Source of the DNA: Girardia tigrina
Taxonomy: Eukaryota
Direction of reading: 5' to 3'
NCBI GenBank assembly: GCA_001938485.1
Contig: MQRK01218349.1
Location: 1-53,428 of the forward strand
DNA: 53,428 nucleotides
Shown here one piece after another: positions 1 through 52,802 of the stretch. Within the stretch, counting starts at the first letter, position 1, and each line of letters begins with the position of its first letter. The notes under the pieces were generated by a model, which saw only the letters and a list, made by a program, of their open reading frames with translations, ran no database searches and was not told the DNA's origin. Both the position numbers and the translations under genes were made by a program.

Positions 1-99
1 CAAATTCCGATTTATCATAAAATTATTATTATGAAATATGAATAATATAAAAATTTAAAAATATACATTAAAAAACGAAAAAATTATATTTTTTTATTT

Positions 100-161
100 T
101 TCATCACTTGAAAAAGGTGTCGGTACGCCGTACCGGCGCGTACCGTCACAAAAAAGCACTG
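100..161. mobile_element. Terminus of a hAT-like DNA element abutting/interrupting the mariner
   Basis: GC-rich subterminal GTACCG repeats ending ...CACAAAAAAGCACTG (reverse complement CAGTGCTTTTTTGTG); mariner coding sequence starts immediately after. The other end is outside the window. Confidence 0.4.
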
Positions 162-1100
162 TGGACCATTACTGAAAACAGGGCTTAAACGCAACTGCAG
201 CAACAAAGAAGATATGCGAAGTTGAAGGTGATAATGTGGTCTCAAATCGTACTGCACAAAATTGGGTCAAAAGGTTCAACAAAGACGACATTGATCTCGG
301 AGACAATGCACGTTCAGGTCAACCTATCACCGTAGATTTCGGAGCAATTCGTGAAGCNGTCGAGACAAATCCGTCAATAAGTACTCGCAGATTGTCGGCC
401 GAACTCGATATTCCTCAAACATCCATTGTACGACACCTTCACACTCTTGGCAATGTCAATAGACGATGTCGAGAAGTGCCTCATGAATTGACACAAATTC
501 AAGCCGAAAAGCATTTCCAAACATGTCAAAAATTGCTTGAAAATCCGCGCGATGACCGTTTCATCCGACGAATTGTAACTTGCGATGAAAAGTGGGTTTA
601 TTTCAGTAAGCCAGACCAACAAAATCAATGGTTGGACCCCGGACAAATGGCGAAACCGGTAGCGAAACGAGATCGTTTCTCCAGGAAGGCACTTTTGTGT
701 GTTTGGTGGAATTTCGAAGGCGTGATTCACTTCGAGTTGGTTCCAAATGGTTGACCATCGACCCTGAACTTTACTGCGCTCAACTTGATCGAATGTATGC
801 GACACTTGGCGAGAAATACCCCGCTTTGATCAATCGAAAGCGAGTTCTTCTACAACAGGACAATGCAAAACCGTACACCGCTAAACAAACAAAGGAAAAA
901 ATCAAAAATCTCGACGCCTTTGAACTTCTTCCACACCCAGCGTATAGTTCGGATCTTGCGCCATCCGACTATCACCTTTTCCGTTCTATGGCACACTTTC
1001 TTCGTGGTCGCAGCTTCAATAATCTGGCCGAGGTCGAAAACGGGTGGCACCAGTTCTTCACTTCTAAGAACAAGTATTGGTACCGCAGCGGGATCGCAAA
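162..1100 (+). mobile_element. Mariner transposase pseudogene
   Basis: HTH, EVPHEL, TCDEKW, QQDNA and HPAYSSDLAPSDYHLF motifs; stop/frameshift near 752; C-terminus and TIRs not seen. Confidence 0.92.
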
Positions 1101-2230
1101 AATTGAAAAAAGAGAAATATGTAAAGTTGGATTAAATTAAGAAATTAATAAATCTATGTGATGTGTGTTCAAAGAACTGCCAGCCCCTCTAGAAAAGTAT
1201 CAACTTGCACAAATATCAACTGATAAAGTGTGGTACAAACTTTATAACTGCTTCACCTTTTTCAACGATGTAGCATATTTGACGATATTTAACTAAGCAA
1301 AAAGGTTTTGTATTTAGAGAAATGTTTGTAATGAAGCCGATGAGGAAATTATTTGGCATATAGAAAGTATATTTTAAGAATTTGGACCACCTAAACGCTT
1401 CTTTCCTGCTTCCAGAAGTACCACAATGAGACAGTAAATGGATAAATGGAAAATTGAACAAGGTTTTACATCAGCCTATCGACCTCCAAACCATAAAACA
1501 AAAATTATATAATTATTTGTTATTTATGTTAAGAAAAACTGTAATTTTGTGATTTTTTATAATCATTTATTTTTATTTTCTTAAAAAATATAATGTATTT
1601 AAAATAATAATAATATTAATATAATATTATTATACAAATTAACAAATATTCGTTCATAAAAAAATAATATTAAACTAATATTCGTTAATAACTTATAATT
1701 CAAATATTATATGAGATATTAAATTTGTAAAGGTGAAATCATATATGAAATCATTTATTCAAGTTTATAAAAAATTATTCTCATAAACTGAAGGACGTGA
1801 TTTTTAATATTCATTTTACAATGTGCTGTTAATAATAAAATAGGTTAGCCATTCATTAATAAAATAAACTTATACAAAATTTACGTGTAGTAATACGCTA
1901 GTCTATTACAATCAAAATTAAGTTAATATAAACTTTTATGACTACGACAAGTATACATGTGAATGAGTATTGATTATTAATTATTTTCCATTAATTCTAC
2001 AGAAAGTAATTGAAGTTTGAGAATGATCATTCCTATCCAGCTAAATTGAATGCCAACAATCAATTATTAGATTTGTGTGCCTATTTTACTTAACTGAATT
2101 CCTTTTATAACATTCAATTTTTGTTTTGTACACCTAATTAAGACATTCTGTATAAATAATCGTTGGTCGCATATGTCTGTTATTAAAATAATGTTCATTT
2201 TTTTCTAATTATTGATCACCTGAAAAAACA

Positions 2231-2251
2231 ATGAAGGAACTTAAGAGAAAG
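2231..2251 (+). CDS. DEG/ENaC putative exon 1 (MKELKRK)
   Basis: AAAAACA-ATG followed by AAG|GTAATA donor; phase 0 matches the acceptor at 5995. Short exon with no homology support. Confidence 0.5.
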
Positions 2252-5200
2252 GTAATAATTATTGTATTCTTTATATTGTGACATTGTTTTCGTATCATAA
2301 AAAGAAAAATATTTATAAAAAAGTACGATAAATAATGTACCTTTTAAATTTTGATCAAATATATTAAGTGTCCTATATATCATTAATTTTACAAATATTA
2401 GATAAATTAGAAAACATTGAAGTTTAAATTAAATGATTTTCATTATTAAATTAATACTCCCTCTGTTGCGAAATAATGTTTACATATTATCATGACTTTT
2501 TGTTCCAAAATAATGTATACATTTACAAACTTTTACACCCAAGAAGTAAATCATACTGAAAAGCATTTATTATAATTATTGAAACGAATTTTAATACTCC
2601 ATTATTTACAATATTTTATTTAAGATGAGGGGTCAGTATTCATATTTACAGGGTCTGCTCATCAATATTTTGCCGTGCCATGAGAATCGCTTCTGGTCTG
2701 CACGTTAGAGATGCTGGTAGAGTACCATTGTTGCGAAGCTTTGCTTTACCGATATGCGGTAACTTATAATTATTTCCTCTCTTCGCAAGCATCGTCTCCT
2801 CCATGCATTGCTGAAGTGTTAAAAATATATTATCCAGCTTATCTGGGTGTAGCTCATCGAAAGCCTTACTCACACAGGTAATCAGTTCGTCAATGGTCTT
2901 CGGAGAATGCTGATGTTGAATGGATTGAATGGCATTGAAGAACTCGAGATCCAATACGTTCATGTCGGGATTATTAGGTGGTTGGTTTTTAAACATAATG
3001 GTAAACCCATCTCTTGTTCCCTCTTCAAATATATCTGGATCATCTTTGTTGAACCTAAATGACATTATTTGATTGGGGAAGCTTTGCCCTGATCGCTGGA
3101 AGCACATTTTGCACTATCATTTTTTTACATTCCTGCGCATTGATCGATTCAATACTTTTTTGTGACGTAAGTACCCTTTGTTCGGTTCTTGCTACTTCTT
3201 TTGGCTGCCTCTTTATACACAAATGACCAGATGCCAATCTTACCATTAAAATAATCCTCAGAACCAACATCACCTCTGGGCCTCGCAACAGCTGCCATAA
3301 ACATCACCTTTGTGATGAATCTTTTGCTTTGGCATGTTCTGTGGGGAACCTCTTTATCCATGGTCAAGTAATAGTTACGCTTGACTTTCGAAAGGTAGAA
3401 CCATTTCTCATCAATATGAACATGATTGCAAAAATTCTCGAAGCACCCATCTGGTTTTACATAGGACAGGCGAAACTTCAGGCGGTCGATTTTATTTCTA
3501 TCCGTTAGTAATGACTTTGCTGTGGATGAAACCCGTTTTAATAACTTACGCTCCTTCAAATTCCTGAATAATGTTGTTTTTGGAATACCGTTGGCACACG
3601 ATAGACTTCGAAGGCTTCCTGGCCGGTTTTGAGGAATGTTCATGATGTCTTTTAATTTATCATCATAGTTTTTCTTTTTTTCGTTCACAATTTCTTTTCA
3701 TTGATAATGAGTCAACAACAATTTCACATCTTCGAAGTTGATCAGAAGCATTTCTCCAGAGTTTCGAAATCGAAACTCTGGACACGTTGTACTTAGCGGA
3801 AATTTCATTTATGGCTCCATGCTTCAGCTTGAGAGGATATCTGCTGAACATATTCATTAGAAAATCTTGAAAAATCGCACTCCTTTCTTCATTAGACAAA
3901 TGATAAGTTGGACGTAAATTTTCTGTAGTTATTTTCGATTTGTTAGCATAACTGTCGCCAAACAGGCAATAAAATTACTCATAGTTTAATTAATTTGTGA
4001 TGATTAATCACTGATGATTAAGTGCACCATAAAAGTGTAAAACGTTGTTTATTTTGTGATTGATGTCAATTTAACGTGGTAAATACCGCAAATTCATAAT
4101 TTTTCTAATTTGTGTTAAACGCTGCAATTTTCTTTACTAGAAAGGTCTAACTTGATAAAATTCTTTTATGAAGTGCCGAAAACGAGAAAAGGAAAGCATG
4201 ACATAAATGTTGTTAAAAAATGCGACTTGTAACCATGGAAATTTTTGTTGGTCCTGACGTGCAAGATCTTTATCTATCCTGATAATCGAAAAGATTGGTC
4301 CCAAATGTAAACATTATTTTGGAACAGAGGGAGTATATTTTAAAACAAGATAATTTTAAAAGAATAAAATAATTTTTTGAAAATAAATCAAAATAATTGA
4401 TAAGGATAATAAGCCATCTCCGACTGGACGGATAACTGAGTATCGTAGAGACTACAGTACCAGAATTTGCGTACAAACTGATGATAATGTTTCTGATAAC
4501 AATACTTTAATAATTTGAAAAAAAATAATGAAATAAGTCAAAATATTTAGATAATTCAGTTAAAAAAGAAAAATTCATGATGGCTTTTGTAGAGAAAATG
4601 ATAAACAGGCTACATAAAAAATTGAAGGAAATACTATTGAAATATTTTACTACGGAATCGGAATTGAGATTGCTGAGGTCTCTGTGGCGGTGACCCGACA
4701 AAATAACTCCAACAAAATAGTGCTAATAATAATCCATTATTCAATTTATAAACTTTTATTTGAAAAAAAAACAAAATAAAATTGATTTACTAAATGTATT
4801 TTTATTACAAAGTCAAATTGAAAGCGTAGAAATTTGATCAGTGGTTTTTTGCCATAAGTTGGCAACAAAGCAGAAAAAAATTGTTTAGTTGAACATACTT
4901 TGCTTAGCTTGAAGTTTTGCTTCGTTCTCCTGCATTATATCGTTGAATTCTGTTTTCAGTATGTTCTTGTTCTCTTAAAAAATAATTGATCAGCTTGTAG
5001 ACATAAGGGTGACCATAAACATACATCTGAAATGCATGGTGCCATCCCTCCACTAAATTATTTGTTCGTGGTAGATTGTCCTGTCCTCGATCTCGAACGA
5101 TTCACAATGTTACCGAAAATCTCGGACTAACTCTGCTGTTCCATCTCCAGTGACAAATATAGTCATACCACCCAGTAGTCATACAAATTCTCAACAACAT

Positions 5201-8200
5201 CTGGCTGAGTATCATTCAGTTCTTTGAAGGCAGTATACTGATTCAGCAGGTGGAACAAATATAAGGGCTAGCTGCACCTTAACAAATAAACGTACATTTT
5301 CATCATTATTTAAATAATTTAAAATTTATGCAACAAATCTGAAATTAAAATATTAATTGTTAATGATTTTCGATCTCTATTTTAAATCATAGTTTTTTAA
5401 ATGAAAATTAAAAAAATAATAATGGGCGCTATTTCGTCGGGTAACTTTCTGGGGCGATAAAAGAAATGGAAACGAAACTAAAGAATGTCGAAAGGAAAAT
5501 TTTATTGAAACTTGAGAAGCTAAATAATTTTTAAAATATATTAATCGGAGAATCACTAAAGAAAAAGTTTATAACGATTAGAAATTAATTAATATTATTA
5601 GTTGATGAAACAAAAACATGTTGTTTTAGAGAGTTATTTTTTTCCAAGTTATAAATTTATTTATTATTCTGTATCATCTTCAAAGAAATTTTGTAGTTTT
5701 GGTGAAATTCGAATACTTAAATGTTATAAGGTTTAGGTATGCAAGAAACATTAACATTTGTAAATGTATAATAATATGTTCAATAATAATATAATATCCA
5801 TTAACAGCTATAATAATCTCTAAATTTATCTATTGTATTATTATAGTGATAAAAAAGCTATTTAAATACCTTTAGAAACTGAAAATAAATATTTTTTTTA
5901 AATTATCAATATTAAAGTTTTAAAGGATATAATAATATTTAATACTTTTATTAATCTTCATGTAAAATATTTTTATAATTTAATATTTCGTTAAGAAACT
6001 AGAAGATGTACTCGGTGAAGAAGCCACAAGTATGCTTAATAACACAAGTTGCCTGGCTATCGGGAACATTTTTATCAGAAATCATCCTTTACTAAAGACT
6101 CTGTGGTGTATTGCTTTTATTCTGTGTACGATACTTACTATAAGGCAATTGTATAGTCTTAGTAATAGCTATTTTTCATATCCTCTAAGCACAGTAATTC
6201 GACTTCAGTCTGAGCCAATAGACTTTCCAAGTATAACATTCTGCAATCTGAATCCTTTGCAATACAATAAACTTAATTTGAGCAAACCAAATTTACAGAG
6301 GTTTTTCAAGAATTTAGAAGATAGACCATTTGTTAAAGATGTAAGTTTGAATCATATTAATAATGTCCGGGAAACCTTTTAATTATTATTATAAACTATC
6401 AAAATAATTGATGAAATAAATTGATTATATTGTTAATGGATTAATTGATTATATTTAATGGATCATCTTGAAAAGATACCATACTTAAATCATTGTACGC
6501 GGCTCTTCTACTAAATTCTAATGTGTTAAAGCTGTTTTGACCCGGATAATAAGAACTCCACCATATGTGATTTTCTCAACAATAGATCGAATTAAAAGAA
6601 ATGATCTGAGTACCAGATCGCTGCTTTAAGCCATGTCACCTAACGCCGACTCAGGTGATTGAACGCTTTCATCAAAAAGCAGACGACGATCACGATTTTT
6701 AATAAGACCTATTATAACATTAAAGAAAGCATTGTTTCAATGAAATACAACTTTTAAAATAAAATTCTCGTTTTTTATTTTTTTTGAATATTTATTACAT
6801 AAAAAAATGAACAATTAGAATTTTTCAATTTTTTGACAGAACGTCAAATTTAGACCTTATTTTGACTTAATAACGTCCTTCGCAACGTACTTGTGCTTAA
6901 AAAGTAACAGATTTGTTCATAATTTTAAAAATAGCTTTGTATTTCAATTTTGACTTTATTGACTTATGGTCACCCTGCACATTTCCAAATACTAAACTCA
7001 ACATACAAAATTCAACATACCAATTTTAACATACCAAATTAAAAATACTCCTCACAGGGTTATTAAATCAATGAATTAACATAAAAAATAATGCAGTGGA
7101 GCTAAATCATACGAATGAGAAGATTTTTTTAATACAAATAAATAAAGGATTAAAATATTGAAAAAAATTGAATAATTAAATTAAGGAAATTATCTTAAAA
7201 CAATGAAACTAAATTTAGAATAATAGATACTATTAAGGACACAGACTGATTTTGATAAGATTTATTGGTATGAAAAAAATCAGTGATCAGTCTCTGATTG
7301 TACATTTTAAAATTCTGCGAAAACAACCAATATTTAAACAAACTGTCATTATAAATTTTTTAAAAATTAAATTAATTAATTTTAAGACAGTTTCCAAAAA
7401 TACTAATTGTTTGGGAGAGTTCGCATTTTAATTCACGTCACACAAACATACATTTACATTAAACATTTCATACAAACATTGATAATTTCAGACATACCTT
7501 ACATCCCCCTCTCTTTAAATGGTTTCAACCATTCTACATTTCTTATCAATGTTTTACCGCCTTCAAACAGAAGTTCATAATTTCTCTGATGCAACTTTTT
7601 GTAATTATAACCGGACCAATGTATCGATTTGCACTTTTATTCATTGTTTCTGATTTTATTAGCACTTTTTCTCAAATATCGAAATATCTTATTGTTGGAT
7701 ATCTTTCACCTATATTCTTATCTTTGTCTTTGATGTTTTTTATGGCTTCTTTCCTTGCATAGTGACTAACAGTATTATGATTTATCCACCAATGTTTGAT
7801 CTTTCTTCCAAAAACGATTTGAGCTGGTGAAACTCCTGTGGTATTCTGAATAGTAGCAATTTAACATAAACTCTACTTCAGGCAATAATTCAACCCAATC
7901 TCTATGTGTACTGTCTTGCAATCGAATATACAGTGCGTCTCTAACAGTTCTAAATTGCCTCTCTGTAATTCCGCTGATATTGTGATGTTAGGGACTTGAA
8001 TACACAATTTTTATTTTAAACTTTTCCGCTATTTCTTTGAATACTTTTGATTCAAAAGTTTTCCCCCGATCAGCATGAATCTCCTGAGGTGGATCATATT
8101 TCCATATCCAATTATTCAGCAATATTCTGGTTGTTGTTTTATCATCTTGGTGTCCGACGGGATTTAGACTGATAATTATGCTAAAATGGTCAATAATGTC

Positions 8201-11200
8201 CAAAATATATTGATGAGTATGAAAACTCTTTTTAAGTGGACCAAAAAAATCTATGAATATCTTTTGGAACGGATCCTCAGCTGACTGTTTGATAGTTGCT
8301 TCTTTGGTTTTCATTGTTAAAACTTTCCTTTTTGACAATTTAAACAGCTTTGTGTTACGCTCTTCACTATTTCCTTCATTTCTTTCATGTCAAAATCATC
8401 ACGTACATAATTGTAAGTTTTTTATTGCCAGTATGGCAAAGCATTTTAAGAATTTCTTCTATGAATTCTATTCTTTTCTCTTGTGGTATCCAAATTTTGT
8501 TATCAGTAGACAAAACTATTCCATCTTTTATTAACGATTTTGATGTTTTATGTATATTTTCTTCGATTTCTTTGATTTCTTTGTCGTCTTTTTGCCATTT
8601 AAATTCCTCCATTTCTTCGTTAAATGCCAATATTTTGATTTTGATTTTACTTCTTTTGGCCTCTTCGTGAATAATTTGACATTGCGTGTATAAATCAATT
8701 AAGTTCCTTGATAATGTATCAACGTTTGAATGATTACTTCCTTTTCTGTATTCCATATCCATCTCTAAACTACTTAGAAAGTTGATCCACATATGGAACT
8801 GAGGGGTGATCGGTTTCTTTGTCGTAAGCATAAATATGATGGTCTTATGATCAGTTCTCAAAAAATTTCTTTTCATATAAAAAGTGTTTGAAATCTTGGG
8901 TTAAATAAAATACAGCCAACAATTCTTTTCTGGTAATACAGTAACCTAACTCATGCTTATTCATTTTGTGGGACCCATAAGTAATTACATTTTCGTGACT
9001 AAATTCATTTTTCTGTGAAAAAACTGCACCAATTGCATCAGTATTCAAAATAAATTGTTTGTTAAAATCGGGATACGCTAAAACCAGTGCCTTCGTCATT
9101 TGTACCTTTAAATTTTCAAGAGTAGTGTTACATTCCTCACTCCATTGCAGTTTCTTTTCCTGGTTTTTGCCACATAAACTTTCTAAAATTTTAGCATGCT
9201 TTGCATAATCTTTTATGAATTTTCTATAATAGTTTGTGAGTCCTAAGAAACTTCGAAGATGTTTAATGCACGAAAGACTTTTAAAATTCTTAATGGCTTC
9301 TACTTTATCTTCATCTGTCTGAATACCATTTTCACTTATTATGTATCCCAAATTTTTCGTTTTTCGTACTAAGAATTGACATTTATCTGGGTTTATTTTT
9401 AAGCCTGGTTCTTTTATTCTTCTCATGACATTTTCTAATCTTCTTAAGTGTTCTTCCTTATTTTTTGCAAATATTTAAATATCATCCAAGTAAACCATAG
9501 CCTCCTTCCAATTGAGATCTCCTAGAACTTTCTCCATCAATTCCTGAAATGTTGCTGGGGCAGCTGCGATTCCAAATGGTATCCTTTTGAAACAATATTG
9601 GCCGTCTCTGGTTGAAAAAGCAGTTTTAAGTCTTGATTCCTCCTCAAACTCTATCTGGTAATAAGCGATTTCTTGATCTATTGTATTAAAATATTTTGAT
9701 CCATATAAAGTGTTCATCATATCGTCCACATTTGGGATATGAAAGGCTGGTCTTAATGTAATTTTATTAAGTTGTCTAAAATCGATACATAATCTAATGT
9801 CTTGTTTATCCTTTTCCAGATGCATACTAGGGGAAATTCCATGGTAAATTGAATCGTACTATTATTTCATTTCTTTCTAAATTTTTATTCACTTCATCAA
9901 GTTTAGCTTCGAGATGTCTTGGTTGTCTATACGGTTTAACCAAAACTGGTTCACCCTGCGTATCAATTTTGTGTTTCGTAAGATTAGTTTTTCCTACTTG
10001 TCAGCAATAAATACGTCTCTATAATTCAACAAAATTTCCATCACATCATAATTATTTTAAGTGAGACACTTACGATTTTTTTCTTTTTTCTCGATCTCCT
10101 TATTAGTACTATTCATGACAAAAAGTTTATTATCTTCAGTTTTCCTTAGCACAATTTTAAACTGTTTTAGAAAATCCATTGCAGCTATTATTTCGGGATG
10201 AATTTCTTCAACCACATAGAATTATATTTCTTCCGTTTCGTTTCCTATATTTACATTTAATTTTACAGTTCCAAAATTTCTTAATTCAGAATCATTTGCG
10301 CAGAAAATGCGCCTATTTGTCTTAATTATTTTTAAGTTATTCATATTTTTAATAATTTCAGCTTTAAGTACATGTACTTGGGCTCCTGTATCTAATAAAC
10401 ACTCTACTACTTTATCATTAACTTTTAAACTTATACTTGGTCGGCCATTCATTTTGTGATATCTAATTTTGAAGAACTCAGTGTTCATGTAATTATGAGT
10501 TTTCTCAGCAATTTTTATATTTTTAATGTCTTTATAGTTCATAGTAAAACATTCCACTTCTTTAGATTTTATTTTAAACTTACTTAATTCACACCATTCG
10601 TCAGGGATATAACCAAGATCACACACACATATGCATTCATACAATCAAACATACACATACCTGTTATTCCATTCAGTGAAACACATTGATCAAATCTCTC
10701 TGTGATCGTGCATCTTCGTTTCCCGAACCATTGTTGTAGTTATATCTTTCATCTTTGTAGTTTGTGTATCCCTGGTATCGAGAATTGTCGGCATCAGAGA
10801 CACTGTCTGTTTCTTTGTAATTAACCTCTGCCACTGGAAAAGAAAGTCTCGAATTCTGTTTTCCTCCAATATCATCTTCATGTGATCTCCTGTTGTACCA
10901 AATTTGACTTCTATTATAAGGTGTTTGTCTTCGCTCATTGAATCGACTTGTATTTTGATAGCATTGAATTCTATTGTGGCCCTTCTTTCGACAGTGGGAA
11001 CATTTCACATTCGGACAATAAATTCTAATGTGCCCTTCTTCGTTACAAGCTCAGCATTTGACATTGTATCTTCTGTTGAAATATCTTTGATCGTTTGCTA
11101 AGGTCTGGTTGTGATCTGATTCTTTTTTGCGAATTTTCAAATCTCTTTCAGCTCTTCTTTCATTATAATTATTTCTTTTTTCATATCTGTTACTTTGAAT

Positions 11201-14200
11201 TTCCATCCTTGGATATTTCAGTTTTTGGGAAACAGTATAATCAGAAATCGGATTAGCTACTTCAATCTTCTGAAAACGACGCACTCGATTAATAACTTCT
11301 TTAATATCTTTTGTTTCTGATGCTCCTCTCAAAATCATTCCCTTTTTTATTTCATAGTTATCAATAATATTTAAATATACCGCATTTGATAACTCTTTCT
11401 TGGAAAGCTTCTTATCTGCTAACTGTTTTATAATTTCATCGGCTTTTTAAATATGGCTTCTGGATTATTATCACCGATTTTCAAGTTTACCGATTCGTTC
11501 ATCATATCCAGAATTGTTTTTGACCTTGAAAATACTACTTGTAATTTCTCTCGATAGTCCTTTCGGGCAGCATTTTCGTTCTTGATTAAAGCTTTTGGAG
11601 ATAGAAAAGCTGTGAAAATGATAATTTTATTTCTTCAGTTAATCCAGTTAATTTGAAAAATCTCTCGAACTCCAATTTGTTAGAATCTCCGTCAAATACT
11701 TCAGGGCCTCTGATATTCAGATTCAGATTGTCCGTGTTCGCCATATTAAGGAAACAAGACTGATTTTGATAAGATTTGGTTTGAAAAAAATCAGTGATCA
11801 GTCTCTGATTGTACATTTTAAAATTATGTGAAAACAACCAATATTTAAACAAACTGTCTTTTATCAATTTTTTAAAAATTAAATTAATTAATTTTATTTT
11901 AAGACAGTTTCCGAAAATACTAATTGTTTGGGAGAGTTCGCATTTTAATTCACATCAAACAAGCATACATTTACATCAAACATTTCATACAAACATTTAT
12001 AATTTCAGACATACATTACAGATACAAATTCCAATAATAAAAAGGAAATTCATCATGAAAACGTTTATTAAATAAATAAATTATGTGTTATTGTGTAAAT
12101 ATAATCCATGATATGTGGACGACTTTACGATCATTAATAATCGTTTGAAGTTTTTTTATCAATTTCAATACACTTTGTTCTTTAAGGGCATAAGTGTACT
12201 TGAAAGGTTATGTAAATTCCTCTCCCAGAAAATTAGTGCATTTATTGATAAATAAACTAACAATTTGGGGGAAAATAGATTTATCCAAAATACTTAAGAA
12301 ATTCAAAGGAACGATTTTCTTGGATAATAAAAGCAGGGGTAGATTCAGACTACTATTCCTGGGGGAATTTTTTACCCTATTTAAACAAAAAATAGAAATT
12401 TATGAAATGCATAATTATAGATATTATACTAGTAATTACATTTACCAAACTATCTCTTCAAACAAAAGTACATTATAATTAGAATAACTATTATAAAATT
12501 TTTAAAAACGTCATTTTAAGCTATTTAATTTTACAAAATATATAATTTTTATTTTTTATTTTAAAGATATTGACAAGTCGAAACTGATAGCAGAGTTTTA
12601 TTTTCAAATCAAAACCCTACACTCTCAAAGTTACCACAATTTCTCAGTTCAGACAAACAATCGCAATTAAATCCGATTACTATTTCTCCACACGCGCCCC
12701 TGCCCTCAAGGCACACAAGCAGACACCGCTTGTGCAGTGGGGACCCGATCACCGACACTGGCTTGAATTCCCGTATAGATGAATACATCGAATCTCGCTC
12801 GACGGCGAATAGCTTTTTGTGGCCGCCCCACTGGAGACTCTCCTCACTCTTCTAAATCGCATTCGACGGCTTGTGGCCCGTCCCGATCGCTACTTTCACT
12901 AGTCGCGCGCGGATCACCCATATCCATGATTTTGGTTCGTCCGACATCATCACTGCTCGCCGCGGGTGGGGCCAACCGCTCGTGACTTACGTGGTAGGGT
13001 CTGCCGTCGACTTCTATTTGATGCGGCAGGTGCAATCCGGTAACGGTTGCGCATCTCCACTGTGACATGCACGAATACGGTGGTGCCGGTTTCACAAATA
13101 CTTCATCTCCGATTCGAAATTCGTTAGTTTGTATTTTTCGACTCCGACTGATGTTAGTGAGGTTGAATGCCTTCGGCAATAATAGCCTCTGTCTGTGTGC
13201 AAAGATGGTTGAGGCGGGAATGACGCCACTTGAATTTGGCGTTGCTTTATACCTTGCGACCATCTCATTCACCGGCCTGTTACTATGAGCCACCATTCGT
13301 TTAATAGTCCTGTAGCCGCGTTCCACAATTCCATTTCCGCTCGGACGGTTCACGCATCTGAAATGAGTTTCGATACCCACTCGTTCTAGCAATCTCGACA
13401 CGCCCTGAAAGTGTAATAGTTATTGAGAATTACTTCCTCTGGTGGACCGAATTCGTTCCAGATGTCCGCTTTACTTTCAGTAGTAATTTGGTGACATATC
13501 ATCAATTGCCCGGGCCGCAATCCACCACGGTTAGAAATTTTGCCGCCCCAACATGTATTACATCCACAGCAACTCGGGTCCACGATTTCCTTACCCCGAG
13601 ATCACCTTTCTCCCACTGAATTGGCGATGGGTCGATTGATGCACACTGCTCGCACTACTGAATCACTGCTCTGATTTGGTGTTCTGACACCTTGCACGGA
13701 CCCCATATTTTTCTAACTAGGAACATCGATCTTCTCACTCCGAAATTATGCATCTCGTGGAGTTGCTTAAGACCGTCCACTGATTCCCGTTGATCTCTGA
13801 CAGTTACTGCTGCTGCCACCGTGGGATTTCTCGCCAACGTCCACCAGCTGGCTGGAACCTGAGTCAGCGCGTCCGCTCTGTTTTCTTCTGATCGGGCCAG
13901 TGTTATAGTGACTTTCAATTTCTCTTCCTCGACGACTTGTTTAAATAGGCCCACCCACTGCCTGATTAGAATATCGCTGAGTGCCTGAGATCTAATCGGT
14001 TCGCGTCCCGACAGTGCCGATGAGAGCCATTTGGTGACTGTTGTTGAGTCGGTTAATAATTCTAATTCCCGAATTCGCCATTTGACTCCCTCTTTGAGTG
14101 CGCGATTTGCGGCGTTTAACTCAGCTAAATCGATGTAGTTAGTGTTGTCTTTTTGACGCAACCAGCAGGCATCCTCGATGAAGACGCTCCCTATTTCGAC

Positions 14201-15439
14201 GCATATACCGACAACGATCGAGCTTGCGTCGCACCACACACGTATGAGAAACAGTAATCGTAATTAAATCGTAACAATTTTAACAATCGTAATTAAATCC
14301 GATTGCTATTTCTCCACAGATATTATGAGAAACAGCACAAATAAATGACTACGTACATTTTTCAAAGATTATTTTTTATTATTTTTATTATAACCTTGCT
14401 ATGGTGATTTTTTACGTTGATATTGTCTATGTGGAGCTAGAGTCGCTTGAATACCTGATAGAACTTCAAAATAACGTGGAAAAGGCTTGCCATGGATCTG
14501 ACGCACACAACAGAAGGGAAATTCAATACTCTGGTGTATTGCACGCTGGGCCGGTTCACTGTGTAGAGAAAAATCTTCTCGGAAGATGATTTGGATATAT
14601 ACGCTGAATTGAAGTCAATATTTAATGAGCTCGGTCCACCACAAAAGCTACTGCTCGACCATTTTACGACACATCAAGGAATGATAACTCGTGAATTTTA
14701 ATCCGGAATGGGTATCGAGATAGGGTTTTCTTTCGTCAATAGGCCATGGAGAAAAGCAATAGTGATGCGCTGTCACCGAACCATCGAGGGTGCAGCAAAC
14801 AGCATGGTCAATTCCACTCTAAACTCGAATGGAGTAATCCCAACTATCACAGTGTTCACTCAGAGGCGGCGGCTATCGTTTCCAGTGGAATTTGCGAAGC
14901 AGCTTTTGAGGTCTTGCAGTTCAGAGCATACGCTGGACCTACAATTGGAAGACTCAATTTTTGTAAGGCTGACTAACCCAACATGCGCGAAGCGGTGGAG
15001 GGATGCAGTAGTAAATGGTTTGAGCCATCAATTTATTATTTCTAATTCTTATTTATTGTTTTTCTTTTATACCTAACTTACATATACTACGAGTATTTTT
15101 ATTAATTCTTGTTAATCTTTTCTAGAATAATAATGAAATGGACAGCAGATCATTTGACGAAAATTTATTCACCAAACTAATATTAAATGAAACACGGTAA
15201 GACTAGTATGAAAGTTTCTGAGTTAAACGGGTTGTTTGAATAATAATATTTATGGTTATTTTATCATTTTAATAATAATTGGAGTTGTAATTTTTAGCAT
15301 AAGAATCATCATTTATACAGGAGTAAGAAAAAGTTTAAGACCACCGCGTTATTTTTAATTTTGTTGCTTTAAATATGAAATTGGTCAGTAAATTATTGCA
15401 TTGAATTTGATTTAATTTAAACAACAACTATTTATAAAA

Positions 15440-18400: not shown

Positions 18401-21400
18401 TACAATGAAAGATGATTTGCCGAATTTTTTAATCACTGATGTTAACTTTGAACTCCTTCGCTAGGAAAATCGATCTCTGGAGTCCCATATGCGTTCTATC
18501 ATGAATTTGCTTAAATCTTTCGATATCCAATTCTAATGAAGCCGAAAGAACGTTGTCACCTTCCATGGAGCGACATAAAAAAGACAATTGTGAAGGAATT
18601 CTCGTTAAGATGTCGGGCATCATTCATCTCAGATCTAACATAGACCACGTGCAGCTTCAAATTATATTCGGAAAGAATATCTTTGAGCAGATTAAGTCTT
18701 TTAAGAATCAATAGCTCAGAAACCACCTTAATTTTGTTTCTTTGCACTTTATCGATCACATTCGATATCCACCCACAAACAACCTGACTGTCGAGTCTCA
18801 ACTCAATGTCCGAAAAACCCCATGCAATCGCTAAGTTTAACCCCTTCACAACCGCTTCAAACTCAACTAGACTGATGTGTCGACAGTCATTGACTTTACG
18901 AAGCCAAGAAGCATCCTCAATTCTCTGTCCATCGACATCTAAACAAACGCCCAGTGCCAGCGTACTGGCATCACACCAAAGAATGACTTTACTATCGTCT
19001 TTCACAGACAAAGTCCCACTGGCGCAATCATTTTCCTTTATTCTTTCTACCATGTCTCCCATGGCTTTCTTCAACTCTTCACGGATCGGACTGTCCCAAT
19101 GTCCGGCAGATTAGCGTTTCGAAACGACGTCGCAACGCGTAACCATCCACATACAGGGTTGATTCCGGTTATTTGGCCACAGAAGGAATAAAGATCACAC
19201 CTAGTTTTGACCTCGTTAAGGTCTAAAAGCAATCTATTTGCCATAATTAAAAAAAAATCATTCTATTTGGAAATTTTTTTTGAACTTAACTTATTGACAG
19301 AATTTAATCCATGTTCTCCGATCGAAACAATGGAGGGCTTTCTTTTCCACCGAACCTCAATCATGGATCGAAAACATTTTGAAGAAAACAATATATTCGA
19401 AAAATACAGTTCTCCTTGACATTTTCATTTGGTTTGTGTTTGAAAGAAATAAAAGCATAACGTTTGTGTATGTGTAGACTTCCGTCTGTTGAATATAATT
19501 ATTTTCAGTCCAGCGTTTCCAGTTTCTTATAGAAACGATGTGTTGAACACTTTAAAAGGAGGATAATATTGTAGTACAACCGATTCAAGAAAAACACATA
19601 CGGTCAAGTAGAGTTGGAAGAAGAGTCAAAGATTAAAATGACATTCTCAAAAAAAGAATGGTCAATAATGTTTCGAAAGAATACTGTCGAAAAAAATCAA
19701 TAAATCAAAATTTTCGAATTTGTATTTTTAAAGAAAATATATTAACTCAAGATTCGCATTAATTCATCGGATTTACCCCCAAAAAACGAAGAAACCTCAT
19801 AAGAAGAATCAACTTTATTTTATAAAGAAATCCTTTTATTCCTGAAACTAAATTTATTTTTTTTATTCCTAACTAAATCCTTTTATTTAAGAAACTAAAT
19901 TCGTTTTAACCTCAGCAGCCATAATTATCAAAACGAACTACATTCAATACTGAATTATACAGGGTGGCCCAATGGGTACGCAGCCTCTAATTTTTGCATA
20001 TTCTAAATCTACTCGTCAAGACGAGTATTTTGATATATAACATGTGAGGTGTAAAAATTCCAGAACTTGACCTTTTTGCGCAATAAAGGTCAAATTTTGA
20101 AACTCAAAATTTTGTTATAAAAATGCATTCATTTTGTGGATTTTTTAATCCTGATTAGGAATATATGGTTATTTTTTTCATAACACTTATGGTTCGAAAG
20201 TTATACGATTTATAAAACTTAACATTTATTGGTCAATGTTGAAAAAATTGAAAGAATAATGTAATAAATAGAAAAATAATCAATGTTTGAATGAAAAAAT
20301 ATATTTGAATAAACGATGCTACATTAATAAAGTAGATGTTCAAAGTGCTTTCCTTCGGTCGCTATCACATGTCGAAGTCGTGTTTCAAAATTTGAAATAG
20401 TCTTTTTCAAAATATCGGATCCAATTTTCTTGATTTCTTGTTCAATTGCGATTTTAAGCTCGTCAAGTGTTGCTGGTTCTGTGCGATAAACCTTGTCTTT
20501 GAGATAGCCCCATAAAANNNNNNNNNNNNNNNNNNNNNNNNNNNNNNNNNNNNNNNNNNNNNNNNNNNNNNNNNNNNNNNNNNNNNNNNNNNNNNNNNNN
20601 NNNNNNNNNNNNNNNNNNNNNNNNNNNNNNNNNNNNNNNNNNNNNNNNNNNNNNNNNNNNNNNNNNNNNNNNNNNNNNNNNNNNNNNNNNNNNNNNNNNN
20701 NNNNNNNNNNNNNNNNNNNNNNNNNNNNNNNNNNNNNNNNNNNNNNNNNNNNNNNNNNNNNNNNNNNNNNNNNNNNNNNNNNNNNNNNNNNNNNNNNNNN
20801 NNNNNNNNNNNNNNNNNNNNNNNNNNNNNNNNNNNNNNNNNNNNNNNNNNNNNNNNNNNNNNNNNNNNNNNNNNNNNNNNNNNNNNNNNNNNNNNNNNNN
20901 NNNNNNNNNNNNNNNNNNNNNNNNNNNNNNNNNNNNNNNNNNNNNNNNNNNNNNNNNNNNNNNNNNNNNNNNNNNNNNNNNNNNNNNNNNNNNNNNNNNN
21001 NNNNNNNNNNNNNNNNNNNNNNNNNNNNNNNNNNNNNNNNCTTTTTCACTAATCGGTTGATTAATTTGAATCTTGTAAGGGAATAAAGCTAGATCTAATT
21101 TCATTATTCTTTGTATAGATGATCTTTGTATTCCGAGTACTCTTGAGGCCTGTCTTTGGATTGATTCGGGATTCTCTTGAAAATAATTTTGTACGGACTC
21201 AATGTTCTCTTCCGTTCTTACAGTCTTGGATTTCGTTTTCATTTCTTCTTTATTATCTAGAACCGTTCCAAATTCCGTGAACTTCTCGTATGCACGATTT
21301 ATTGTAGTTGGATCAATTTAATAATGGCTTCCAAACTCAATTCTAAATTCTTTAGCCACTTCGGTTGCCGATTTCAGTTCGTGGAACTTAAGAACCATGA

Positions 21401-24400
21401 AAATTCGTTGTTTAACGCTATATTTACTCATTTTTGGAAGCTTAAAAATAAAAAAATTATTTAATAAAATACAACAATTAAGGTTAATTAAACTAGTTCT
21501 TACCAGAAGTGATAAATTTAACTAAATTAGCTATCAAAATACAGATCTATAATTAATCTCTCGCAAGTTAATGCCAAANNNNNNNNCAAATGCTTTTTAA
21601 TCAATTGACAAAATACAACGATAGGGTTTTTTCATAAATTTAAAATATTTAATTTGTTTTTTATGAAACTGACCAATAAATGTTAAGTTTTATAAATCGT
21701 ATAACTTTCGAACCATAAGTGTTATGAAAAAAATAACCATATATTCCTAATCAGCATTAAAAAATCCACAAAATGAATGCATTTTTATAACAAAATTCTG
21801 AGTTTCAAAATTTGACCTTTATTGCGCAAAAAGGTCAAGTTCTGGAATTTTTACACCTCACATGTTATATATCAATATACTCGTCTTGACGAGTAGATTT
21901 AGAATATGCAAAAATTAGAGGCTGCGTACCCATTGGGCCACCCTGTATATTCATTCAAGAAACCAGAATATTTATTAATATACTTTATAGATATCGCCAC
22001 AATTTTTCGAGGAACTATCGACACTCAAAATATTTTTCATTATATACTTATTCCCTTATAATCAATGATTGATAAATTTATTTATTAACATATAATATTA
22101 AGCCAAAAATATTGATTAAGCTAATATATAATGATTCTTTTTTATTCTTTTTTTATTGTACATGATATGTACATGTATTTGAGAATTCTAATAGGTCCCA
22201 TTTTGACCTCCTCCGCCATTCTAGAGTAAATGAGGATGGAATCATTTACTGAAATGTTTCACCGTTTATAAAATCTACCTTTTTTCTAGAAATCATAAGG
22301 TCAAAAAGATGTTAATGGATACTGTAAGAAAAACAATCATTAATCAATTTATGTTTCTAGTTAGGTGCTAACTGCATTCAAATTAATATTTCTTTAGAAC
22401 GTAATCAGAATAAACATCATAAAATTCCAAACCTCAATTCATATATATTTATACATAGATATACGAATCGAATCTGTTTTTTTTGAGTTACTAAAAAGTG
22501 AAAAACATGTTAGTCTTTTTCACAGTTTTGACATTTATTGAACTCTTCTTTCAGATTTCTGTATTCAGCATCCATTTCCTTATTTTTTATATTTGATTAT
22601 TTAAATAAAATATTTTATTACATTTTGGTTATATTTATATATTTTTTATATAATAACTCTAAATGCTTTTAATATTATATTTACTTAAGAGACGTAAGAT
22701 TAGCCATGGGTCACCAAATCCATAATTTTATTCTTCAATGCTCTTTTCTCGGAGAAAAATGCAATATTGACAAGTAATTATTCAATATTCCATTATTATT
22801 CAATATTTTATGAATGTGAGTTATTTGTGGAATTAGAATTAATTCAATAATCTGATAGAATTTATTTAAATTAATAATGTAATCACAAAACAGTCAATTC
22901 ATTTTTTTTATAAAATTGATATTCTAAATTTGGAACAATAAATAAGGTGAACAATTTGTCCCGTGTCCTGTGACGTTTTTCCAAAGTCCAGACTTAAGAA
23001 TTAAGTCAAATTTTATATTTATGAAAATCATTGTTTTGCGTCTTTGGAATTGAACGGGCTACGACGACTAACATATTGCTTTTGCTACCCAGCTACATTG
23101 TATTTGTCTCTAAGATTAAAAATATGTCAAGGAATAAAATGTTATACATTTTTTATATTTTTAAATTGTACTTATGTTAAAAATAAAAAATATTACGATA
23201 TTATTTTTATTTTGTATGAAAATATTTGTTGATACCCCTCCTTCAGAGTTGTCCCGCTTTGCCCACCTAATAATCTGGTCACCTTAATAAATATCATTTA
23301 AGTGCAAAACATCTTACGTAAATGTTATTTTCAATTACAAAAAAGTGACCCTCACTGTCTCTTTAAAGAATTGAATTTTAATAATAAGACTTATTATATT
23401 AAAAAGTGATTTTATAAATATATTAACAATCAGTGATTCTAAGAATAACCAATTTAGTTAATAATACAATGTGAAATGAAAATCTACTATAATACAGAAT
23501 AATAGTACCAACCAAATTCAAATCATATCCTTTCAGATTTCAATTTCAATATAAAGTCGAGAGCAGTCAACTGTACCCGGCAGTAAGTTTCATTACTTTT
23601 TATGTTTTCGTCTCGTAATTCAATGGTTACATATTCAGTATAACATTTTCATAACTAATCCAAAACTAAGATGAGGAAAAAATGAACTAACAAGAGTTCA
23701 CTAATATTTCGTATAGCCACTTGAAACAACATGTAAGATAGAAATACGATTAGTCATAGAGTCAATCAATTTCCTCTTGTAGTTCGCATCTCCCATGATA
23801 TCTACCTAATTTATTCTTATGTATCGAAGAGTTGATTAGAATCAGCTGAATGCTCATAATCCCTCTTGAGAATATCCTCTATATTTCCCCACACATTCTC
23901 GATCGGCTTCATATCTGGGCTTGTGCTAGGTCAATGTTAGACGCCTGTTAGCTCTAGATATTATTTTGTTGCTCTTGATGTAGCGCAGGAATATTGTCCT
24001 GTTGAAAAAAACTACCATTGGTTAGTAATGTAGGTAAGTATGGTAGAAACGCATCTTGTAATATTAGGGTGAGTCATAAGTTGTGGGGCACTTTTTATTA
24101 AAAATTAAAATGTTCATAAAACAACGCACAATAAAGATTATGATTCGAAATAAAGTCCATTATGTTCAATACANNNNNNNNNNNNNNNNNNNNNNNNNNN
24201 NNNNNNNNNNNNNNNNNNNNNNNNNNNNNNNNNNNNNNNNNNNNNNNNNNNNNNNNNNNNNNNNNNNNNNNNNNNNNNNNNNNNNNNNNNNNNNNNNNNN
24301 NNNNNNNNNNNNNNNNNNNNNNNNNNNNNNNNNNNNNNNNNNNNNNNNNNNNNNNNNNNNNNNNNNNNNNNNNNNNNNNNNNNNNNNNNNNNNNNNNNNN

Positions 24401-30400: not shown

Positions 30401-33400
30401 GTAGTCTGCATCTGAGTGCGCATCTTCCAACATTCTCTTCTAATCTTACTTCTGTCAATGACTTTAGCTTGGAACATCATTAGATGTAAACTTCACATCG
30501 TGAAGAACAGATGATGCAATGAAACTCCTGCTCTATCTCAATCAATGGCTAAATTTGACTGAGACATTCGCATTTGGCCTGCATTAGAGTTTGAGGCAAT
30601 TCGAATTATCAATTGTCTTCAAACCTTTAGCTTCATGGAAAATGTAATCGTTATGAGTGGCAGGTTCACTTTTAAAATTTTTGAAATAATTAATTTTTAT
30701 AAAGAATTTCTAACATAAGAAAATATCTAAAATCAAAATTTTTTCGAAACAATTATAAGTAAAAAAATATCTTTAATTAATTTTAAAAAGTTATTTTCGA
30801 AAATAATTGATATATAAAGCCAAGGATAATAATGTTTTGGATTAATTTTCAAAAGTCATTCTGACAAATAAATTAATGAAATTTTTGTTGCCAGAAATAT
30901 GAATTTAAAAAAACGGATAATTTTAAATCTTAAAGACGGTTTGAAATTCTGAAAATTAAAGATTTGATAAATAATTAATTCTAAACAGTTTTTGTAAAAA
31001 AATAAAACAGCCATTAAAATTTTATAATTAATGAATCGTAATAATATAACAATAAATTTAAATATTGTAAATTATGTTTTGTATTTGAATTGTATAGATA
31101 CTAAAGGATTTTTTTAATTAAAAAAATTGAGCTAATACATTAAAATAAGTTTAATATCATAAATATATTTTGTTAAGTTAATTAAAACACTTATAAAAAA
31201 TGAAACGAATAAATCGTAAAATAATTTCAGGTAACAAAATGTTTTTTAAATTGAAATATTGATAATGCGTTAAAATTTTTTAATTAATTAAAACGTTTTT
31301 ACAAATAAAATAAAATAACATTAAACTAATTTTAAAGTAATGAAAAAATCTTTTTGTTATTTTAGTTAAAATAAATTATGTTGATTTTATATTTTATTTT
31401 AAATTAAATTTTATAAAATAGCAGAATGTTAATCTATAAAATTAATGGAATAAAAAAAATAAAAATTCAATTTTTAAAATAACGTTTTAAAAAATAGCTC
31501 ATCAATATTTATAATCCCATATTTTTGTGTACAAGAAATCTGTTCAAAAGAAAACGAAAGAAAATTTCCTCGATGAAAAATTGTTTAAATAACTGTTATT
31601 TGTGTTATAAATAAAATTTGGTGCTAATGAATTATAATCTTGATCAAGAACCCAACTATCGTCATCAATTTCAGTACTGTTTTCTGTGTCGCACTCTAAA
31701 ATAGAATTCGCCTCTAAATCTTCAGTAAATAGATGATCTTTGTTTTCTCTTGCTTTATGTTCTTGATTTTCTCTTCTTTCTTGCCTATCTCTTATTCGTA
31801 TCAATTTTCGACTTACAGAAGAGTCATACTTCAATTTTCTGGCAGCATTTACAATCTTCGTAATTCAAACATTTACAGGACGAAATATCAAACAAAGTAC
31901 TGTTTGCTTGGTAGAAAAATTCATTCTTAATTTTTACTCTCCCTTTCGCGTTGTTGCTCTTTCTTTAATCTTCTAGTACTTTTCATTGTAATTTCATGAG
32001 AGATTATTTCTTGTTGACTAACTATTGGTAGGGAGGCTCTCCTCCAAATTTCGAAAATGTCAGAAGAGATAATTTCGCTGACATCTTTCACAGATGGATT
32101 CTTTTTATTCCCTTTCCACAATAACTCATGTCTGAGTTAAAGGAGATACTACATTAAATCAGTATAAAACTGATTTCTTAAGTTGTTCTGGAACTCCAAA
32201 AACATCAAAAAGAGTTTCACTTCTTGTTGAGGTCATCTTATTCCGACATAAAACACAACGTTGATATTGTTTTCACAAAGTAAAATCTAAAAACTAAAAA
32301 AACGTTGAAAGCTAATGTAGACTAGTATACAACTATACAATGTTCGGGTAATAAAAAAACAGTGTCACAATTTCGCAAATATATATCGCCTTATATTAAC
32401 ATAAACAAGAATAATTTTTGAATAACTTGATTAAATTTTGAATAATTTTATGGTTGAAAATATTTTTAATAGAGGTAAATCTAAATTTACTCACAATGAG
32501 TTTTCGCTTGTGTTAGATTTGCTATGTTAGAAGGATGCTGACATAACCTTTACGTGTTGAGAAAATAAAAAGGAGAGCAAGGCTCATGTTCACGTTAAGA
32601 ATGATGAAGTCCTAAAATTGATAAATAATCATACACATGAATCTTCAGCAGGGGCTGTAGAAGTAGCTGCCATAAAAAAATTCTGATATTTTATAACGTA
32701 GTTCATATTTTGTTTATTTATTTATTTAATTTAAAGTGTTTGTATATTTATATATTTCAAATTTATTTTATAATTAAGACTTTTCACTCCTTTATTATCC
32801 AATAAATATGGGAATTGTTTTACATTCAATCCTTACAATCATTTCAACAGATCGTATATTGTCAGCAAACGAAGTAGAAGTGAAGGTAAAAAATAATAAG
32901 ATAAATAAAAGTGACTTTATAATTAGGCCTGTTTATTACGTTTTATCTACAAATCGATGAGTATTTGAAAAATTTCATTCCAAGTTGCGGTGTCAGAATT
33001 CATTTTCAAGAACCTAGTTCTTTAGAGTTACCAGAATCTTATGGTATGAACTTACCTCCAGGTTTTGAAATATCTTTGGGCATAATTCCAGTTAGTTTAA
33101 TTATAACTTTAAAATGTCTTTTTAAATACAATAAATATTGTCTAAAATGTTAATTTATTGTTATAAAATAATTTTATTTGTATCATTTAAACGTGAAAAA
33201 ATATTTTTGTCTAATAAGTCTTTTATTATTGAATAACAAAGCTATCAAAGAATATTTCTATTGCTGAAATCAAGCTATAATTGGAGCAATAAACAAAGAG
33301 TGTTTAGGTTACAATTTTCAAAGATTCTATTTCAGAGTAGGCCTCCTCCCCCGGCGACAGCACATGAGCGAACTCATGCTTCACTTACTCGAGATTAGTG

Positions 33401-52224: not shown

Positions 52225-52802
52225 AGTAGGGGAAAAATGGGGATTCACCGGCAGACCCCCCCCGGGGGGGGTAGCCCGTTGCCATGGTTACGTAACCAGT
52301 TACCACGCGGGGTTACCATGGCAACGGTCGCGATCACCTTAGCAACGGTCGCGGTTACCATGGCAACGGTTGCGATCACCCTAGCAACGGTTACGGTTAC
52401 CATGGCAACGGTCGCGATCACCTTAGCAACGCTTCTGATTGGCTCATTGGTTCCCTAGCAACGGTCGCGGTCACCTTAGCAACGCTTCTGATTGGTTCCC
52501 GGTTCCCTAGCAACGGTCGCGATTACCTAAAAACACTTCTGATTGGTCGACGGTTCCCTAGCAACGGTCACGATCACCTTAGCAACGGTCGCGATCACCA
52601 TAGCAACGGTCGCGATCACCATAGCAACGGTCACGATCACCTTAGGAACCGTTCCGGTTCACTTGGTGACGTAACCAAGGTCTCGGTTCCCAGGGTAACC
52701 GTAACCAAGGGACGTTTTTCATTAGCAACGGATACAGTGATCCTAGGCGGTTGTAACCATGGTTACGGCCCCCGTATCCATAGCAACCGTGACCCCGTAA
52801 CT
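52225..52802. repeat. GC-rich minisatellite (21/42- and 52-bp periods) of X-box-like and CCAAT motifs, possibly the terminus of a large DNA transposon
   Basis: Repeats GCAACGGTCGCGATCACCTTA / GTTACCATGGCAAC; CTGATTGG three times; abrupt AT-to-GC transition at AGTAGGGG; runs into a gap. Confidence 0.8.

Follow-up and report, generated by a model that had tools for sequence, protein, structure and literature searches.

Most DEG/ENaC ion channels carry a His-Gly (HG) pair in the re-entrant segment that precedes the first transmembrane helix (pre-TM1). A locus of the flatworm Girardia tigrina, in which Leu-Ala (LA) occupies this site, raises the question of whether the substitution is real, how widely it is shared and what kind of channel subunit would result from it. 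To answer it, we analysed the whole available stretch of 53,428 nucleotides (contig MQRK01218349.1, positions 1 to 53,428, hereafter the window), which consists of AT-rich DNA with assembly gaps.

Leu-Ala at the His-Gly site

The plus strand of the window encodes N-N-T-S-C-L-A-I-G-N-I at 6038–6070, with Leu27 and Ala28 specified by the codons CTG GCT (6053–6058) at the His-Gly position of the DEG/ENaC pre-TM1. The span of 6041–6070 originally given for this motif does contain LA; it begins at the second Asn and so misses the first codon of the full NNTSCLAIGNI. In phmmer alignments, LA falls without gaps on the HG of alpha-ENaC (6wth) and of ASIC5 (9mkz), and the LA of an orthologue from Macrostomum (see below) aligned to the HG of chicken ASIC1 and of Aplysia FaNaC. 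The codons and these alignments confirm that LA stands for HG in this protein, as originally noted. The Gly two residues past LA is not a shifted HG glycine, because both Macrostomum proteins have Ser there. The two LA codons are at least three base changes away from any HG codon pair, and HG is absent from every plus-strand frame of 5900–6150 as well as from the entire spliced product of 480 aa.

Gene structure and transcription

Exons were mapped by probing the window with its nearest full-length relatives (tblastn and scans) and from the loose ends of read contigs. In silico splicing gave a gene of 11 coding exons that extends from 2231 to 51637 on the plus strand (~49.4 kb) and encodes 480 aa with no internal stop; all ten introns are of the GT-AG type and their phases are consistent. 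The expectation that the rest of the reading frame is intact with all extracellular motifs thus holds after splicing, but not for a single ORF: the frame is divided among 11 exons and, left unspliced, stops at 6380–6382.

The coding part of exon 1 (2231–2251) provides the start ATG and seven residues; an in-frame TGA lies six codons upstream and the donor GT is at 2252. Its assignment is based on the loose ends of the contigs from three read runs (X1, X5 and X6), in which the bases before 5993 match the window exactly at 2233. The ATG codons at 5467 and 6032 were also considered as starts and were dropped in favour of 2231. Exon 2 (5996–6340), recognized by the Pfam profile PF00858 and covered by contigs of all four runs, encodes the re-entrant loop with LA, TM1 with its conserved Trp and the first strands of the extracellular part, which include FPxxTxCN. 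Exon 3 (15126–15196), in the finger region, was found by a scan and has AG/GT ends; its join to exon 2 (6340 to 15126) is present in the loose ends of X1, X5 and X6. Exon 4 (22690–22773) came from tblastn with the Macrostomum proteins and is consistent in its AG/GT ends and phase. The same tblastn searches and splice ends define exon 5 (32779–32885, with the GNCFTFN motif, also detected by a profile), exon 6 (32927–33090), exon 8 (50941–51055, with the thumb cysteines) and exons 9 (51098–51231) and 10 (51280–51432), the last two again with profile matches, whereas exon 7 (38495–38584) was recovered by a scan and its splice ends. Exon 11 (51479–51637), placed by tblastn with the Macrostomum proteins and by the spliced frame, carries TM2 and the stop codon. 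All 11 exons are on the plus strand. The N-terminus of a close relative of the window protein, P0151, had no match within positions 1–6000 of the window.

Four of 13 read runs (X1, X5, X6 and X9) were compared with positions 3700–7200; that they represent RNA is judged from splice joins, not from the run records. Each of the four yielded one contig that covers exactly 5993–6340, and joins into exon 1 and exon 3 were seen in three of them (X1, X5 and X6) among the loose ends listed. Exons 1–3 are therefore transcribed and spliced; exons 4–11 are known from homology and splice signals. Over 5993–6340, the X1 and X9 contigs, which come from two studies, show no differences from the window, which speaks against a sequencing error; those of X5 and X6 differ at five and eight sites, respectively, whose positions are unlisted, so that LA is confirmed in two of the four runs.

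LA and TM1 are encoded in one exon, so that a transcript with HG instead would have to draw TM1 from another exon. Searched with a profile of 144 non-LA relatives, the 2196 pieces obtained by translating the window in six frames gave exon 2 as the sole match (E 2e-31; 0.13 for the runner-up); the search covers the sequenced bases of the window. Within these bounds, there is no alternative N-terminal exon of the kind that had been named as potentially fatal to the original prediction.

The X1 and X9 contigs continue for 246 bases before 5993, 30 of which are visible. If colinear with the window, they would start at 2003, just past a pyrimidine-rich AG, and this site may serve as an acceptor either for spliced-leader trans-splicing or for an extra non-coding exon.

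Membership in the DEG/ENaC family

The Pfam cut-off for PF00858 (23.6 bits) is exceeded by exon 2 alone (68.6 bits) and by the exon 9–10 region (33.4 bits). The spliced product, the alignment and a model of the orthologue all give the same topology, with two TM helices, short intracellular termini and a large ectodomain, and a PDB fold search with the orthologue model returned matches at E of about 1e-31. The ectodomain has cysteines at 14 conserved positions (90–357), where the family has 11–14, plus an extra one at 230. TM2 retains D0', G3', S6', the GFS belt (G10'-F11'-S12'), T15', E18' and E21'. Of the features described as DEG/ENaC hallmarks, the initial Trp of TM1 and the GxS in TM2 (PMC9822975) are both present; the pre-TM1 HG is not, LA being found instead. 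We did not treat HG as defining the family because the accepted members DEGT-1 and PDPNaC1 are without it. The gene is an intact, expressed DEG/ENaC variant and marks a conserved flatworm clade.

ENaC and ASIC1a share with the window protein the two-TM topology, the cysteine pattern, the GxS belt, E18', the TM1 Trp and a Ser/Thr two positions ahead of the HG site, and differ from it in having HG itself. Among solved structures, the best matches of the Macrostomum orthologue both by sequence and by fold are, narrowly, the FaNaC/WaNaC channels (Aplysia 7yvb and Malacoceros 8on7), with 137.8 bits to FaNaC versus 122.1 to ASIC1 in a PDB sequence search. However, identity to FaNaCs is only about 22–23% and these channels have kept the His (HG in Aplysia; H17). 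Their re-entrant loop is reported to line the lower pore (PMC11026163). Three Macrostomum genes near the FaNaC branch, which are different from the LA genes, gave no response when assayed (PMC9234716).

One of the Macrostomum proteins, P0002, is labelled 'Acid-sensing ion channel 4' in UniRef. Identity as an ASIC is unsupported, as the proton-gating His that ASICs have just after TM1 is missing: the position has Lys in P0002 and Leu in the window protein. According to one survey that included Schmidtea and a polyclad, ASICs are absent from platyhelminths (PMC9949801).

A flatworm clade with Leu-Ala

A HMMER search with exon 2 against 1.84 billion representatives, from which the best 150 matches were used, was headed by P0001 (89%), P0002 (56%) and P0003 (55%), after which the scores dropped to E 1e-13. 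P0002 is Mlig031795 of Macrostomum lignano (PAA67194.1, A0A267F1U6) and P0003, which corresponds to P0157, is Mlig025217 of the same species (PAA63866.1, A0A267EQY0); both are uncharacterised. LA is present in four relatives, P0001, P0151, P0002 and P0157, and the GFS belt is common to all full-length LA proteins. The window protein is 43–44% identical to the two Macrostomum paralogues over 463 columns. Unlike it, these are 596 and 601 aa long (versus 480), with longer N- and C-termini, and have Gly rather than Ser at 6'. Another record of the P0002 cluster, the 1244-aa P0156 of Macrostomum, is labelled an E3 ubiquitin ligase; its gene model has probably been merged with that of an adjacent gene.

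A maximum-likelihood tree was built from 35 rows that contain both ends of the protein (the window and, out of 156 candidates, 34 proteins, with no named FaNaC, ENaC or ASIC reference). In it, the three full-length LA proteins grouped together at 100/100, with a long branch leading to them. Their closest neighbour was P0161, an HG-bearing protein of the nemertean Lineus longissimus (support 90/80). The suggestion that LA could mark a lineage-specific clade is borne out by this grouping and by the presence of LA in both Macrostomum lignano paralogues, which also answers the question of whether orthologues share it. Macrostomorphs diverged from other rhabditophorans several hundred million years ago. 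Since LA is found in the window and in Macrostomum, the loss of HG is old and lineage-wide, and the gene has persisted without HG in two distant flatworm lineages and was duplicated in one of them.

Three word-based, insensitive searches added no members: no further LA protein was found with the full-length protein (eight matches among 5999 candidates), exon 2 matched none of 122 longer candidates in a search so insensitive that it missed P0002, and residues 76–186 of P0002 matched none of six shorter ones. Given the insensitivity of these searches, their negative outcome is no evidence that other flatworms are without such a protein. Among the best 150 exon 2 matches, 16 of which are identified by name, there was no neodermatan orthologue.

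Both Macrostomum LA proteins are included in the sequence files of PMC10507113, where they stand without the 'TESTED' tag, and the main text of that paper, in the portion available, had no matches to 'HG motif' or 'Macrostomum'. Nor was the clade matched in the accessible supplements of PMC9234716 and PMC9949801. Our literature search found no published study of the LA clade or of its electrophysiology, a search that may miss remarks in tree figures.

Loss of His-Gly in other invertebrate channels

From the best 150 exon 2 matches, three without the anchor motif were dropped and six did not cover the site, leaving 141 proteins to be scored, a sample biased by having been ranked by likeness to an LA query. 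HG was found in 51 of the 141. A further 71 kept only the Gly (QG in 32 and PG in 17), four had HA and 15 had lost both residues: LA in three, TA in six and six singletons, some of them perhaps misaligned. Among these 141 relatives, with their bias towards LA, HG is thus far less general than the originally cited consensus implies. Within the same set, LA was confined to the flatworm clade.

The TA proteins comprise P0030, P0048 and four more, and include an oyster gene annotated 'degenerin unc-8-like'. They are a parallel case, with high TM2 conservation (82% in one pair). The oyster TA clade (XP_052701236.1, P0030) and other xA relatives resemble the LA clade in having lost both HG residues and in having Ala at the Gly position; unlike it, the TA clade has a GLS belt and occupies separate tree branches, so that the TA and LA losses were probably independent. 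HG loss is recurrent in invertebrates, with the flatworm LA clade as one clear and old case.

Two other channels that have naturally lost HG are reported to retain conduction with altered permeability. PDPNaC1 of a centipede lacks HG, forms a homotrimer and has a broader cation selectivity (PMC12714832), and DEGT-1d of Caenorhabditis elegans, likewise without HG, conducts as a homomer whose reversal potential is shifted to more negative values (PMC8536179, PMC7933985). Their lineages are unrelated to the LA clade; PDPNaC1 matches P0002 only at E 0.0007.

Conservation and model of the pore

Between the window protein and the two Macrostomum paralogues, identity is 37–38% in the ectodomain, 77% and 62% in TM1, and 75% for both in TM2. 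The controls were the 66 of 496 non-LA pairs with ectodomain identities of 33–45%; in these pairs, which are mostly paralogues rather than orthologues, share ancestry and are mutually non-independent, TM1 identity had a median of 35% and a maximum of 58%, and TM2 identity had a median of 54% with one of 66 pairs above 75%. With these controls, the comparison suggests that the pore helices of the LA clade are unusually conserved, and such conservation argues against a dead pore. The identity of LA itself between the two lineages is not above background, the re-entrant region being 53–59% identical.

An AlphaFold monomer model of P0002, made with a 38-row alignment, has a helix at 67–87, a turn at 88–91, a second helix at 92–98 and TM1 at 102–131, with LA (91–92) at the turn. 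Mean pLDDT is 77.7, residues 88–90 of the turn are below 50 and TM2 is drawn unbroken. The predicted layout would be that of a re-entrant helix-turn-helix, with low confidence at 88–90.

Predicted function

We put at about even the chances of the reading that we prefer, namely that the LA protein conducts, through a lower pore that has been remodelled and selects less strongly for Na+. In such a channel, the re-entrant helix-turn-helix would still form and would be tethered to TM1 and TM2b by the retained set of Ser (at the position of ASIC1a T26), the TM1 Trp, T15' and E18'. The lumen-facing His would be lost along with its hydrogen bond to the belt Ser of the neighbouring subunit, and the Gly of the turn would become Ala. 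Opened by some extracellular ligand or stimulus, the trimer would conduct through this remodelled lower pore as a cation channel with little or no selectivity for Na+ and a shifted open probability.

The roles of these residues are taken from ASICs. The His of chicken ASIC1 lines a constriction below the GAS belt and forms a bond with the belt Ser of the neighbour (PMC7308080), and T26 of human ASIC1a links the loop to T449, E452 and a Trp of TM1 (PMC8594623). Mouse ASIC1a mutants G29A and H28A conduct with Na+/K+ ratios of 1.1 and 0.8, whereas T26S, with a ratio of 5.7, keeps much of the selectivity (PMC8404453). By analogy with these mutants, which belong to clade A ASICs and are distant from the LA protein, altered selectivity or gating is what would be predicted, in agreement with one of the options originally proposed. 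Evidence against the preferred reading comes from human ASIC1a, in which H28L is among the His substitutions that abolish or markedly decrease the current (PMC8594623); an LA homotrimer may therefore be silent.

This last result favours a different reading, unlikely but well worth considering, in which the LA protein is an obligate heteromer partner, silent alone, that joins HG-bearing flatworm subunits at one position of a trimer and adjusts open probability, selectivity or trafficking. MEC-10 plays such a partner role for MEC-4. Heteromers are common in the family (PMC10148893, PMC4212090), Macrostomum has HG-bearing paralogues (supplements of PMC9234716 and PMC10507113), and the strong conservation of TM1 could reflect a fixed partner interface. 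However, the beta and gamma subunits of ENaC, which are themselves partners, need their own HG glycine (PMC7308080), so the loss of HG is not a mark of a partner, and the two LA paralogues of Macrostomum would fit LA-only trimers equally well.

A bolder form of the conducting channel, which we consider speculative and rather doubtful, is that the lower pore was rebuilt as a unit before the macrostomorph–triclad split and has been kept since, with a hydrophobic Leu ring, a Phe-bearing belt and a clade-specific TM1 in place of the His-Gly/GAS network. It would represent another natural solution for the lower gate and filter (e.g. non-selective or Ca2+-permeable and gated at the Leu ring) and would conduct well as an LA-only trimer.

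It is improbable, in our view, that LA is simply tolerated and compensated in an ordinary Na+-selective DEG/ENaC whose selectivity comes from the GxS belt and E18'/E21'. The belt and the acidic residues of TM2b are indeed intact, exact HG is missing from 90 of the 141 relatives that cover the site, and one study both argues that the belt may be enough for selectivity and shows second-site rescue of H28 mutants (PMC8594623). Yet H28A and G29A each lose selectivity in ASIC1a (PMC8404453), the rescued double mutants are non-selective (PMC8594623), and the rescuing Phe at 21' is absent from the window protein, which has E21'.

Still less probable is a non-conducting protein, another of the options raised at the outset, in which a ring of three Leu under the Phe-bearing belt would seal the pore and leave a sensor, a scaffold or a dominant-negative subunit. 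A hydrophobic Leu at the narrowest position of the lower pore would be in keeping with this, but G3', G10', S12', E18' and E21' are all retained and, when set against the controls, conservation is higher in the pore helices than in the ectodomain. Loss of conduction is hard to reconcile with such a pore, and equally with the reports that DEGT-1d and PDPNaC1, both HG-less, conduct as homomers.

Finally, an assembly error, a pseudogene or a minor exon of a gene whose real product comes from an HG-bearing alternative first exon is largely refuted and deserves hardly any weight, given the identical spliced contigs of two studies, the open frame across 11 exons, the occurrence of LA in P0001, P0151, P0002 and P0157 and the single pre-TM1/TM1 exon in the window, even though the LA codons are confirmed in two of four runs, the reads cover exons 1–3, and upstream DNA and intronic N gaps lie outside the view.

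It is still argued whether selectivity is determined by the HG loop or by the GxS belt, and the evidence so far has come from mutations that cripple the channel (PMC7308080, PMC8594623, PMC8404453). A natural clade without either HG residue, with three full-length members and a conserved pore, offers a test case through reciprocal LA/HG swaps, and the gene offers RNAi experiments a defined target in model flatworms, where DEG/ENaCs have hardly been characterised. Its value is limited by the fact that HG-less conducting channels are already known and that HG is often altered in invertebrate paralogues.

Repeats and mobile elements around the gene

The sizes of the introns are bimodal: four are of 41–48 bases and six, of 3.7–12.4 kb, are packed with transposon remnants. 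Upstream of exon 1, a remnant of a Mariner/Tc1-like transposase is found at 628–1140 on the plus strand, with a weak DDE_3 match for 628–1137. Judging by their motifs, two minus-strand ORFs of intron 1 (2646–3643), which have no Pfam match, are presumably Mariner/Tc1-like transposase remnants as well. Intron 2 contains a broken Ty3/gypsy-like LTR retrotransposon (7988–10542, minus strand), with pieces of the protease, RT, RNase H and integrase in separate ORFs, and intron 7 contains remnants of piggyBac-like (39290–39973; DDE_Tnp_1_7, zf-Tnp_2) and hAT-like (45384–47404; Dimer_Tnp_hAT) transposases, both on the plus strand.

In intron 3, an inverted repeat of 285 bases with 98.6% identity between its arms (19951–20235 and 21670–21953) flanks a gap-containing stretch and probably marks the two termini of a DNA transposon of recent origin. 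A second inverted repeat, of about 375 bases and 84% identity (48471–48843 and 50471–50838), lies in intron 7 and ends ~100 bases before exon 8. A short AT-rich stretch at 6976–7092 recurs at 35532, 37675 and 48479 and reaches a very high contig depth in each of the four runs; it is a genome-wide repeat. About 700 bases past the stop codon, a GC-richer tandem array with periods of 21, 42 and 51–53 bases (52311–52649) adjoins an assembly gap.
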